64,000 nt of DNA from an uncultured Verrucomicrobiae bacterium (GTDB lineage Bacteria; Verrucomicrobiota; Verrucomicrobiia; Chthoniobacterales; Xiphinematobacteraceae). The first letter of the stretch is position 1, and the number at the start of each line of letters is the position of its first letter. Both the position numbers and the translations under genes were made by a program. A model generated the notes under the pieces. That model ran no database searches and was not told the origin of the DNA. It saw only the letters and a program-made list of their open reading frames with translations. The stretch covers positions 766,239 through 830,238 of the forward strand of contig CAVPNI010000001.1 in assembly GCA_963706715.1 (NCBI GenBank). The letters are read 5' to 3'. This document shows positions 39,590 to 41,362 of this stretch, in pieces.

Positions 39590-41362
39590 TTACTTGGAGG
39601 CCAGACAAGCGAGCTTAAGTTCCCGCAGCTGTTCAGGACGTACTGTAGATGGTGCACCCATGAGTAAATCTTCCGCTTGTTGGCTCAATGGAAAGGCTAT
39701 TACTTCTCTAATATTGGGTTCATTTGCAATTAACATGACAATCCGATCAATTCCTGGAGCAATTCCACCATGCGGTGGCACACCGTAGCGAAATGCTTTG
39801 GTTAACGCACCAAATTGTTGGTCAACAATATTGGTCGGATAACCTGCAATCTCAAAGGCTCGATACATGATCTCAAGACTGTGATTTCGAATTGCTCCGG
39901 ACGAAAGTTCTATGCCATTACAAACGATATCATACTGGTATGCTTTGACACTCAGTGGATCTTCCTTTTCTAGAGCCGCGAGTCCACCTTGAGGCATGGA
40001 AAACGGATTGTGCGAAAAGTCGATCTTTTGGTTTTCTTCATTCCATTCGAACATTGGAAAATCGACAATCCAACAAAAGCGAAAGGAGCCTTTCTCTATC
40101 AGATCAAGCTGCTGACCGAGTTGATCCCGAAGAAAGGATAAAATATTACAGATTTTGGATATTTTTTCGTCCGCCGAAAAAAAGATACCATCGCCAGTTT
40201 GAGCCTGCGTTCTCGCACGAATTTCGGAAAGAAGTTCCGTAGAAAGAAACTTTGCAATTGGTCCCGTTGCAGTCGTTTCTCCCAAAAGAATCCATGCCAG
40301 ACCGGGCGCACCAAGATCTTTGGCTTGCTCTTCTAGTTTGTCAAAAAAAGATCGAGATTTTTTGTCAAGTGCAGGAGCTGCAATACAACGCACAATTTTA
40401 CCCGAAAAGGCTCGAAATGGAGAATCAACAAAAAGGTCTGTGAGATCCGTAATTTGCAGCGGATTGCGAAGGTCCGGTTTGTCATTGCCATAGCGCATCA
40501 ATGCATCTTGATAAGAGATCCGTAGGAATGGCGTGCTTGTAATATTTGTGTTAGGTAGAAATTCCAGAAACAATCCTGCCAACAACTCTTCGGTGACACG
40601 AAAAACATCTTCCTGTGTTACAAAGCTCATTTCGATATCGAGCTGATAAAATTCCCCTGGCGAGCGATCCGCACGTGCATCTTCATCCCGATAACAGGGA
40701 GCAATCTGAAAATAGCGATCGAAACCAGAGGTCATCAGTAGCTGTTTAAACTGCTGAGGAGCCTGAGGAAGCGCATAGAATTTCCCAGGGTGTTTGCGAG
40801 AGGGCACCAGGAAATCTCTGGCTCCCTCCGGACTCGACGCGGTAAGGGTTGGAGTTTGAAATTCCATAAACCCAAATTCCCACATTCTTTTTCTCATGCT
40901 CGCGATAATGTGAGAACGAAGTGTAATATTCGACTGCATCCGGGATCTCCTCAGATCCAAAAATCGATAGGTGAGCCGTAAATCTTCTGGCGCGGGACTA
41001 TCTGGGAAAATAGGAAAAGGTAGCGGATCGCAAGAGCTTAATACCTCATAAGAGTTCAAATGTAATTCGACTTCTCCAGTGGGGATTTTCGGATTGAGAT
41101 TTTTGGCATCTCTCCGGACAACCGTTCCTTCCACTGAAAGCACGGTTTCTTTGTTTAACTGAGCTAGTTTGGGAAACGAGGACTGCTCCGGATCAACGAC
41201 GATCTGCGTCACTCCAAAATGATCTGCAAGCTCTAAAAACAAGACGCCTCCATGATCTCTTCGGTTTCGGAGCCAGCCACTCAACTTTGCAGTCTTGCCC
41301 TCGTGCGACATGCGGAGTTCATTGCAGGTATGAGTGCGATATTGAGAATGGAATGAAGACAT
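39590..41362 (-). CDS. aspS: Aspartate--tRNA ligase
   Basis: 'RTHTC', 'RRDHGG', 'PEGARDFLVPSR', 'LPQAPQQFKQLLM', 'RDEDARADR', 'PPHGGIAPGIDR'. Confidence 0.97.
   Translation of the reverse strand: MSSFHSQYRTHTCNELRMSHEGKTAKLSGWLRNRRDHGGVLFLELADHFGVTQIVVDPEQSSFPKLAQLNKETVLSVEGTVVRRDAKNLNPKIPTGEVELHLNSYEVLSSCDPLPFPIFPDSPAPEDLRLTYRFLDLRRSRMQSNITLRSHIIASMRKRMWEFGFMEFQTPTLTASSPEGARDFLVPSRKHPGKFYALPQAPQQFKQLLMTSGFDRYFQIAPCYRDEDARADRSPGEFYQLDIEMSFVTQEDVFRVTEELLAGLFLEFLPNTNITSTPFLRISYQDALMRYGNDKPDLRNPLQITDLTDLFVDSPFRAFSGKIVRCIAAPALDKKSRSFFDKLEEQAKDLGAPGLAWILLGETTATGPIAKFLSTELLSEIRARTQAQTGDGIFFSADEKISKICNILSFLRDQLGQQLDLIEKGSFRFCWIVDFPMFEWNEENQKIDFSHNPFSMPQGGLAALEKEDPLSVKAYQYDIVCNGIELSSGAIRNHSLEIMYRAFEIAGYPTNIVDQQFGALTKAFRYGVPPHGGIAPGIDRIVMLIANEPNIREVIAFPLSQQAEDLLMGAPSTVRPEQLRELKLACLASK

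Follow-up and report, generated by a model that had tools for sequence, protein, structure and literature searches.

An additional, horizontally acquired aspartyl-tRNA synthetase gene beside a TfuA/YcaO RiPP cluster as a candidate target-replacement immunity gene

A stretch of 64,000 nucleotides from an uncultured, soil-type Verrucomicrobiae bacterium (assembly GCA_963706715.1, contig CAVPNI010000001.1; C1:766239-830238 of the host genome, G000), hereafter the window, carries a gene for an aspartyl-tRNA synthetase (AspRS), here called aspS2, next to a predicted cluster for a peptide that is ribosomally synthesized and modified after translation (RiPP). As the original prediction had it, aspS2 is intact and convergent with the last RiPP gene, at a distance of 17 bp (this open reading frame (ORF) ends at 39572, and the aspS2 stop codon occupies the sequence from 39590), and it is divergent from an ATP-binding cassette (ABC) exporter, from whose start at 41744 it is separated by 381 bp. 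The genes and features of the locus are as follows.

39590-41362, minus strand: aspS2, an additional gene copy obtained by horizontal transfer, encoding an intact bacterial-type AspRS of 590 aa from the FSHNPFSMPQGG ('type-2') subfamily
33816-34103, plus strand: precursor-like ORF of 95 aa with an NHLP-like leader (NF038399, E 3e-6, 27 bits where the cut-off is 40)
34191-34928, plus strand: TP_methylase-family methyltransferase, 245 aa (PF00590, E 7e-14; weak match to a YabN-type methylase)
34873-35064, plus strand: 5' part of a PhyH-type dioxygenase gene severed by an insertion sequence (IS), with a weak colinear match to the N-terminus of the PhyH protein of locus L029
35065-36444, minus strand: ISL3-family IS lying within the PhyH gene (transposase at 35126-36280, DDE_Tnp_ISL3)
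36445-37022, plus strand: 3' part of the PhyH-type Fe(II)/2-oxoglutarate (2OG) dioxygenase gene (PF05721, E 4.5e-22, profile positions 55-213 only)
37003-38904, plus strand: TfuA-YcaO fusion of 633 aa, a thioamidation-type pair (PF07812 and PF02624)
38844-39572, plus strand: cluster-specific protein of 242 aa with a predicted dUTPase/dCTP-deaminase-like beta-barrel fold (five members, 43-49% identity)
41744-43438, plus strand: ABC exporter with permease and ATPase and no peptidase domain (ABC_membrane and ABC_tran), divergent from aspS2

An uninterrupted ORF of 618 aa covers 39590-41446 on the minus strand, and starting from its second ATG, at 41362, yields the 590-aa protein, which matches the N-termini of homologues. 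AspS2 comprises an OB anticodon-binding domain (residues 26-108; PF01336), a class II core (126-560; PF00152) and a GAD insertion (320-406; PF02938). It scores 781 bits against the NCBIfam aspS equivalog NF001750 (cut-off 443) and 590 against TIGR00459 (374), and solved bacterial AspRSs match it at E values of 1e-137 to 1e-145. In the alignment, its blocks QAPQQFKQ, CYRDEDARADR, SHNPF, ELSSGAIRNH and GGIAPGIDR line up with both AspRS subfamilies, DFSHNPFSMPQGG lies at residues 448-460 and RRDHGG at residues 34-39; the class II motif blocks are taken to sit in the active site. By its domains, equivalog scores and motifs AspS2 is a bacterial-type AspRS, for which aspartylation activity is predicted. 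The alignment also separates it, as had been proposed from this motif, from enzymes of the HHPFT kind: type-2 sequences carry the blocks FSHNPFSMPQGG, ELSSGAIRNH and APGIDR, and those of the host type carry HHPFT and EIGGGSIRIH. These distinguishing blocks presumably line the active site.

The host genome (3.04 Mb in 4 contigs, 100% complete) contains three AspRS loci, each on a different contig, so aspS2 is not its sole aspS; the original prediction of a second AspRS was right that the gene is an extra one but undercounted the copies. aspS1 (C4:185785-187554) lies downstream of hisS and upstream of apaG, with nrdAB, thiC and histidine-biosynthesis genes around it, which is the classical housekeeping context of a hisS-aspS-apaG operon. 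aspS3 (C3:947554-949334; L007:10555-12335) and aspS2 share 73% identity at the DNA level and 76-80% at the protein level. The reading frame of aspS3 is broken by a single-base indel within a T7/T8 run, which reflects recent decay to a pseudogene or else an error of assembly, and no second cluster copy was found near it, the window cluster proteins matching only C1 in this genome. Substitutions between aspS2 and aspS3 fall mainly at third codon positions (116/55/308 at positions one to three). Nonsynonymous divergence (dN) is 0.13-0.15 and synonymous divergence (dS) is saturated, and this low dN with saturated dS indicates long purifying selection on both genes. The two proteins have diverged from each other further than AspS1 has from its same-genus orthologues.

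No asparaginyl-tRNA synthetase (AsnRS) scored above the cut-off in the host genome (best 123 bits versus 342.6, at a LysRS-like locus) and gatB is present, so a non-discriminating AspRS would be needed. The His of RRDHGG, which we take from work on Pseudomonas AspRS to mark non-discriminating enzymes, had been singled out in AspS2; it is indeed there but is not distinctive, being common to AspS1, AspS2, AspS3 and most sequences of both subfamilies. The additional genes, one of them a stand-alone paralogue, could accordingly benefit the cell irrespective of the cluster, by raising Asp-tRNA(Asn) for the GatCAB route or by standing in for AspS1 in a symbiont-like genome that is decaying and full of IS elements. 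We attach little probability to this explanation, as AspS1 is intact with the same His, one AspRS is enough for all 40 relatives described below, cluster-linked copies from two other loci (L046 and L051) have Leu at the His position, and the recurrent linkage to the cluster elsewhere would be left unexplained.

Relatives of the host (40 genomes, 4 from the same genus and 36 from the same order) each gave exactly one AspRS match, 42-47% identical to AspS2. Among database sequences, the relatives of AspS1 formed a smooth series of 93, 88, 86, 83 and onward to 68% identity, the named ones coming from Verrucomicrobia, Chthoniobacterales, Terrimicrobiaceae and Candidatus Xiphinematobacter. The best relatives of AspS2 were 63-71% identical, and those with names were Bryobacteraceae. 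In a tree of 81 rows (IQ-TREE quick, LG+G4; the partial L047 row left out), AspS1 fell within a clade of the host's relatives (support 100), AspS2 and AspS3 were sisters (100), and this pair lay inside a clade of 31 rows (99) together with the linked metagenome copies of L051 and L046 and 27 Bryobacteraceae-type sequences. Constraining AspS2 and AspS3 into the host clade, a group that was named after the tree had been seen and that is the natural null hypothesis, cost 230 log-likelihood units (approximately unbiased test, p-AU 7.8e-5). Vertical descent of aspS2 is rejected: the gene lies outside the host clade of Verrucomicrobiota AspRSs and was acquired horizontally from beyond the host lineage, which upholds the other half of the original prediction. 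Base composition gives no sign of recent transfer, and the cluster and aspS2 are fully host-like: GC content at third codon positions (GC3) is 0.40 in aspS2, 0.35-0.45 in the intact cluster genes and 0.56 in the 3' piece of PhyH, next to 0.47 in aspS1 and hisS. This leaves a puzzle, as the cluster and aspS2 are missing from genomes of the same genus, in which AspS1 is conserved at 86-88% identity, and yet are host-like in composition and distant from their known relatives. An Acidobacteriota-type hisS remnant was not found upstream of aspS2; only the housekeeping hisS on C4 was matched.

We searched for the cluster in other genomes through its TfuA-YcaO protein. A single-protein scan of species genomes found nothing. 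A pattern scan built on a four-sequence alignment returned four loci from 185,579 species genomes, two of which were the same cluster: L028 in G042, an Acidobacteriota metagenome-assembled genome (MAG), and L029 in G041, a Vicinamibacterales MAG. A scan of metagenomes gave 16 loci, comprising eight of the same cluster type (L046-L052 and L056), three YcaOs at 27-30% on low-GC contigs and five distant ones. By tblastn with the window proteins, the full syntenic set (precursor, methylase, PhyH, TfuA, YcaO and 242-aa protein) was present in L028, L029, L049 (whose contig stops within its YcaO) and L051, and a shorter set (methylase and TfuA-YcaO) in L046 and L047. Because their YcaO segments are identical, L048, L049 and L050 were counted as one taxon, as were L046 and L047, which share a 100% identical ORF between AspRS and methylase; L052 and L056 were too short for their neighbours to be judged.

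A type-2 AspRS gene follows the 242-aa gene after 41 bp on the same strand in L029, and the contig of L050 ends with 14 codons of an AspRS N-terminus ∼45 bp past the 242-aa gene. In L046 and L047, the type-2 AspRS gene lies ∼490 bp upstream of the methylase on the same strand, and in L051 it is convergent with the cluster, after an extra 2OG oxygenase gene. With the window counted, there are six taxon-level instances whose flanks can be judged; a type-2 AspRS adjoins the cluster in five of them, the gene order takes three forms, and no flanking gene is common to the linked loci. All three cluster-bearing genomes (G000, G041 and G042) and every cluster contig with a linked AspRS hold the type-2 enzyme. 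Type-2 AspRS is thus a persistent companion of this cluster type, in a linkage that recurs in unrelated genomes. That one particular gene should come to adjoin the cluster by chance in several unrelated settings is very improbable, although formal statistics are limited by the ancestry that the instances share, and trees of the cluster genes (YcaO, TP_methylase and TfuA) were too weakly resolved for a test of co-inheritance with AspRS. The original prediction would have been undermined by a sole aspS, by vertical inheritance or by homologous clusters that lack the gene, and on each of these points the opposite was found.

The extra 2OG-Fe(II) oxygenase gene after the 242-aa gene occurs in L051 (6672-7340) and in L028 (8597-9562, minus strand), the two proteins being 37% identical, and it is absent from the window. 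A tRNA-Asp(GTC) gene at L046:5760-5834, 1.2 kb upstream of AspRS, lies near a fall in GC from ∼0.70-0.75 to 0.61-0.65, and may mark an island boundary or belong to the unit. GC3 proved unreliable as a filter for gene calling in such high-GC loci.

In the phylum of G041, more than 50% identity to AspS2 was reached only in G041 and G064 among 201 sampled genomes, the next best being 47% (49 unlisted matches score lower, three genomes gave no match and three are flagged as unpublished). Among 30 relatives of G041, 27 had full-length AspRSs that match the L029 enzyme at only 41-47%, two (G064 and G065) matched it at 66%, and the match in G060 was split (51%/39%). The type-2 enzyme seems to have displaced the phylum-typical AspRS in G041 and in G042, in the latter of which a 3.4-kb contig of its own carries the gene. 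Of 401 sampled genomes of this phylum, only G041 itself gave a member of the 242-aa family, and neither this family nor TfuA-YcaO was found in any of the 40 relatives of the host. One relative of G041, G062, has two AspRS fragments at C11:1221-2482, 83% and 42% identical to the L029 enzyme and one with an in-frame TGA, and these may be what is left of a linked copy since lost; a normal AspRS lies 14 kb away, and this genome gave no match to the 242-aa protein.

The close co-directional layouts of L029, L050 and L046 would fit co-transcription, and the linked AspRS might then feed Asp-tRNA(Asp) to a tRNA-dependent peptide step, or its co-expression might answer a demand of the pathway for aspartate or Asp-tRNA. 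Such arrangements exist: seryl-tRNA synthetase (SerRS) serves valanimycin, and aminoacyl-tRNA serves peptide aminoacyl-tRNA ligases (PEARLs). The tRNA-Asp gene upstream of the L046 AspRS, and the nucleotide-binding-type fold predicted for the conserved 242-aa protein, would agree with a coupling of this sort. The main text of a preprint on tiarins, which are trifolitoxin-like RiPPs, names tRNA-dependent biosynthesis as the other known reason for an aminoacyl-tRNA synthetase (aaRS) in a cluster (bioRxiv 10.64898/2025.12.02.691738). Nonetheless, we consider coupling quite improbable here. LanB/PEARL proteins, Fem/GNAT-type transferases and cyclodipeptide synthases were not recognized among the conserved cluster genes with Pfam and NCBIfam. 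As the linked enzyme is a canonical AspRS with no part missing and shares 54-66% identity with housekeeping AspRSs, any cell's own could serve. In the window and in L051, aspS is convergent with the cluster and not co-transcribed. Coupling would also not account for the requirement for type-2 or for the missing native enzyme in G041 and G042.

We regard it as an even call whether aspS2 is the target-replacement immunity gene of the cluster, that is, a working, horizontally acquired AspRS that moves with a rare TfuA/YcaO RiPP cluster. The recurring pairing of cluster and AspRS suggests that the cluster product acts on AspRS. In such a model, the matured peptide, or a fragment from it, would inhibit the common HHPFT-type AspRS, for example the host's AspS1, and the FSHNPFSMPQGG-type enzyme would be insensitive and would keep the producer's tRNA-Asp charged. 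Because the host genome has gatB and no AsnRS, AspS2 would also keep tRNA-Asn charged. AspRS inhibition by the product, insensitivity of type-2 and a role of Asp-Asn-Gly in the precursor as warhead are all steps that we infer. Target-directed genome mining relies on duplication, co-location with the cluster and foreign phylogeny of the candidate target, and, from sequence alone, nothing indicates the target of an antibiotic more reliably than a resistant copy of it within the cluster. Co-location and incongruent phylogeny were observed here, and a duplicate is present in G000 and was not found in G041 or G042.

We favour immunity because duplication, co-location and foreign phylogeny all coincide in G000, because the cluster genomes always hold a rare subfamily that seemingly replaces the phylum-typical enzyme in two of them, and because tiarin RiPPs are a direct precedent. 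Self-resistance through a duplicated aaRS is classical for mupirocin (IleRS), albomycin (SerRS), indolmycin (TrpRS), borrelidin (ThrRS) and agrocin 84 (LeuRS). As in those cases, a second, phylogenetically foreign aaRS, the candidate target, adjoins biosynthetic genes; unlike them, the product here would be a TfuA/YcaO RiPP, and the linked enzyme comes from an ordinary natural subfamily and is no visibly specialized variant. Mining guided by aaRS genes led to the ThrRS inhibitor vibriomycin (PMC13515044). For tiarins, the preprint's main text describes clusters enriched in aaRS genes that were shown to be resistant target copies, with a precursor residue that matches the aaRS specificity (bioRxiv 10.64898/2025.12.02.691738). 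The window resembles these clusters in its adjoining aaRS gene and in the housekeeping duplicate elsewhere in G000, and a YcaO may be present in tiarin clusters; the invariant Asp in the conserved core of the precursor would, by analogy, correspond to the matching residue.

Several findings weigh against immunity. The cluster of L028 has no adjoining AspRS and is a true negative, being followed by the 2OG oxygenase and a Y-family polymerase and preceded by a methyltransferase and a 972-aa ORF. G041 and G042, for which MAG completeness is not given, each show only one AspRS, the type-2 enzyme; in tiarins, by contrast, a housekeeping aaRS duplicate was found in every case reported in the preprint's main text (bioRxiv 10.64898/2025.12.02.691738). 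Pfam scans of the cluster genes and flanks returned no ThiF/MccB-like family, which would indicate AspRS-inhibitor chemistry of the established kind, and no exporter is kept with the cluster across homologous loci. Nor is type-2 exotic: one 50%-identity cluster has 621 members, Bradyrhizobium among them, and G064 and G065, in which the 242-aa protein was looked for and not found, carry their type-2 AspRS in a hisS-aspS-phoH context, so that the enzyme is an ordinary housekeeping one in genomes without the cluster. The linked AspRSs do not form one clade (p-AU 0.03) and are interleaved with unlinked copies in the tree. Compared with 32 unlinked type-2 rows, they are set apart by only three columns, all conservative, and no active-site substitution specific to the linked ones was found. 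Finally, the linked AspRS gene of L051 occupies the distal position in a hisS-aspS operon and has a host-like GC3 of 0.88, as against 0.74-0.80 for the cluster genes; it looks like the host's own.

The last three of these points, and the existence of aspS3 as a stand-alone paralogue without any cluster, would also be expected if the cluster had lain beside its donor's ordinary aspS and both had moved on one chromosomal fragment, in which case aspS2 would be redundant while still functional. The L051 layout, with its convergent aspS in a hisS-aspS operon and host-like GC3, mirrors that of the window, and type-2 AspRS is a housekeeping enzyme elsewhere. We judge this origin unlikely, though less so than coupling or a benefit independent of the cluster, since the linkage persists through three gene orders with unrelated flanks and every cluster genome holds a subfamily that is rare in the phylum (2 of 201). 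The L046 AspRS gene is compositionally part of the island, with a GC3 of 0.75, like the cluster (0.68-0.75) and unlike the flanks (0.89-0.92), and plain GC falls at the start of AspRS. The apparent displacement of the native enzyme in G041 and G042, and the maintenance of both extra copies under purifying selection in the IS-riddled genome of G000, likewise argue against a mere fellow traveller. It is still puzzling that the cluster adjoins aspS even where aspS looks native. Were aspS2 and the cluster to have moved together without a functional link, the case would call for caution in target-directed mining, as duplication, co-location and foreign phylogeny would all have coincided in G000 regardless.

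The cluster is not a tiarin: the defining TfxB/TfxC FMN-dehydrogenase pair is absent (no nitroreductase or dehydrogenase family was found with Pfam among the genes of the window cluster, L028, L029, L046 or L051), the C-terminal precursor segment has the invariant Asp-Asn-Gly instead of the conserved tiarin Gln that follows the aaRS-matching residue, and the enzyme set differs, with a dUTPase-fold protein and PhyH alongside TfuA/YcaO and a TP-methylase. Neither 'aspartyl' nor 'AspRS' appears as a word in the main text of the tiarin preprint, whose supplements may list AspRS-associated clusters. We found no published report of an AspRS in a biosynthetic cluster, those supplements lying outside the scope of the search.

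As a target, AspRS has been validated, and among natural RiPPs it has a single class of inhibitors, microcin C. To our knowledge, microcin C and its relatives are the only RiPPs that target AspRS. Two articles present microcin C as a RiPP proven to do so, a Trojan-horse peptidyl-nucleotide whose warhead is derived from an Asn/Asp residue, with immunity by acetylation or peptidase cleavage (MccE, MccF) and not by a second AspRS (PMC8597713, PMC7136475). The cluster described here is not microcin-C-like: besides lacking a ThiF/MccB-like family among its genes in the Pfam scans, it has a precursor that is not Asn-terminated. With TfuA-YcaO and a nearby precursor gene it falls, by sequence, among the TfuA/YcaO RiPP clusters, and a thioamide is predicted. 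Thioamidated RiPP clusters with adjacent or fused TfuA-YcaO, among them thioamitide-like ones with a PhyH dioxygenase, likewise have a small precursor gene (PMC8120280). The main text of that survey contains no description of the TP-methylase, the NHLP-like precursor, the dUTPase-fold protein or the AspRS partner, and in it neither 'tRNA' nor 'synthetase' occurs, and the nearest YcaO relatives are only 36-41% identical.

A more elaborate proposal, which we put forward tentatively and with some doubt, is that these genes define a new RiPP family in which Asp-Asn-Gly of the NHLP-like precursor would be made into a warhead by TfuA/YcaO, the TP-methylase, PhyH and the dUTPase-fold enzyme. The product, possibly an aspartyl-adenylate mimic arising through chemistry other than that of microcin C, would inhibit HHPFT-type AspRS, and the FSHNPFSMPQGG-type AspRS would be a mobile immunity gene that has to accompany the cluster and is able to take the native enzyme's place. 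If this were true, the tiarin rule, by which the cluster aaRS names the target and the core residue names the aaRS, would reach beyond tiarins. The linkage is kept across phyla and gene orders in a cluster type without a characterized member, from which a testable prediction follows, and the two subfamilies would amount to a natural experiment on subfamily-selective AspRS inhibition, HHPFT versus SHNPFS type.

The precursor-like ORF has counterparts of 54-59% identity at the equivalent position in L028, L029, L049 and L051. Its conserved C-terminal segment reads ...MRRVALEE(W/Y)GVDVRRFR.F.(R/L)DNG.K.., with Asp-Asn-Gly invariant in five of five aligned homologues, and the C-termini are ...KVTNQ, ...KVTHQ, ...KLTPS, ...DIDPV and ...TRVTC. 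The TP_methylase gene is syntenic in L028, L029, L046, L047, L049 and L051 at 39-47% identity. The TfuA-YcaO fusion matched the TfuA-related and YcaO-related McrA thioamidation models of NCBIfam below cut-off, and it is rare, the best of 38 database matches being 36% identical. TfuA and YcaO are fused as one ORF in the window and in L046/L047; in L028, L029 and L051 each has a gene of its own, in a frame different from the other's.

The ISL3 element within the PhyH gene is flanked by an 8-bp direct repeat, AAAATTAT, at 35057-35064 and 36445-36452, and has three full-length copies at ∼99% identity elsewhere in the host genome. Its excision in silico restored the frame and gave one continuous alignment of 247 aa to the L029 PhyH protein (E 4e-51). 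Because this insertion severs the PhyH gene, the cluster is probably no longer fully functional in the host, which may have turned aspS2 into a relic of immunity or a spare AspRS.

The 242-aa protein had no family match in Pfam or NCBIfam, and Pfam at E ≤ 10 gave none for any of the five members. Its structural model (pLDDT 70.6, from a five-sequence alignment) matched nine dUTPase representatives with Z scores of 8.0-9.8, and the top 22 rows of the wide search all belonged to the dUTPase/dCTP-deaminase superfamily; Foldseek against the PDB returned no match at E ≤ 0.001. Neighbours in the ESM Atlas, where recognition was below the usual level, were unnamed, mostly viral clusters, together with DUF6065. 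The modelled dUTPase-like fold says nothing on function.

The ABC exporter was rejected as a cluster member, as no ABC match occurs at any homologous cluster locus and the only ones are at two distant YcaO loci (L058 and L059). A paralogue 67% identical to it lies elsewhere on C1.

In the surroundings of aspS2, the IS-rich island without housekeeping neighbours that had been noted from the sequence was confirmed with Pfam, no housekeeping gene being found among the ORFs scanned within ∼10 kb on either side. The mobile elements include an IS630-type element (30469-31424), ISL3 elements (35126-36280 and 43482-44720), a group II intron reverse transcriptase (45796-47277) and a DDE_Tnp_1 gene (52060-53106), and a D5-type primase is also present. 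Most have many near-identical copies across the host genome: window segments 30407-31441 (IS630-type) and 43466-44856 (ISL3) each have at least 10 near-identical copies (∼99-100%), and segment 45317-47400 (group II intron) has ∼10 copies at 88-92% identity, in every case spread over all four contigs. No RNA read set matching the stretch was listed; one DNA run was, with a 0.16 share of the stretch's words.

A GNAT gene divergent from aspS3 (C3:949617-950369; L007:12618-13370) was considered as a co-acquired immunity gene in the manner of microcin C or tiarins and was dismissed. It is a generic GNAT, a 66% homologue occurs in the same-genus genome G002 on a contig without AspRS, and it is probably native to the host lineage. 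Five kb from the hisS-aspS operon, at ∼179461-180546 on C4 (L008:3462-4547), lies an ORF for a YopJ-family acetyltransferase (Pfam E 1.5e-41), which suggests a host-associated lifestyle for this Xiphinematobacter-related bacterium. Within the window, an ORF of 1289 aa at 26405-30274 has no Pfam or NCBIfam match and no counterpart at homologous cluster loci, and the mobile-element-rich stretch also encodes, at 53578-54972 on the minus strand, a 464-aa protein with Schlafen AlbA_2, HATPase_c_4 and HTH_24 domains.

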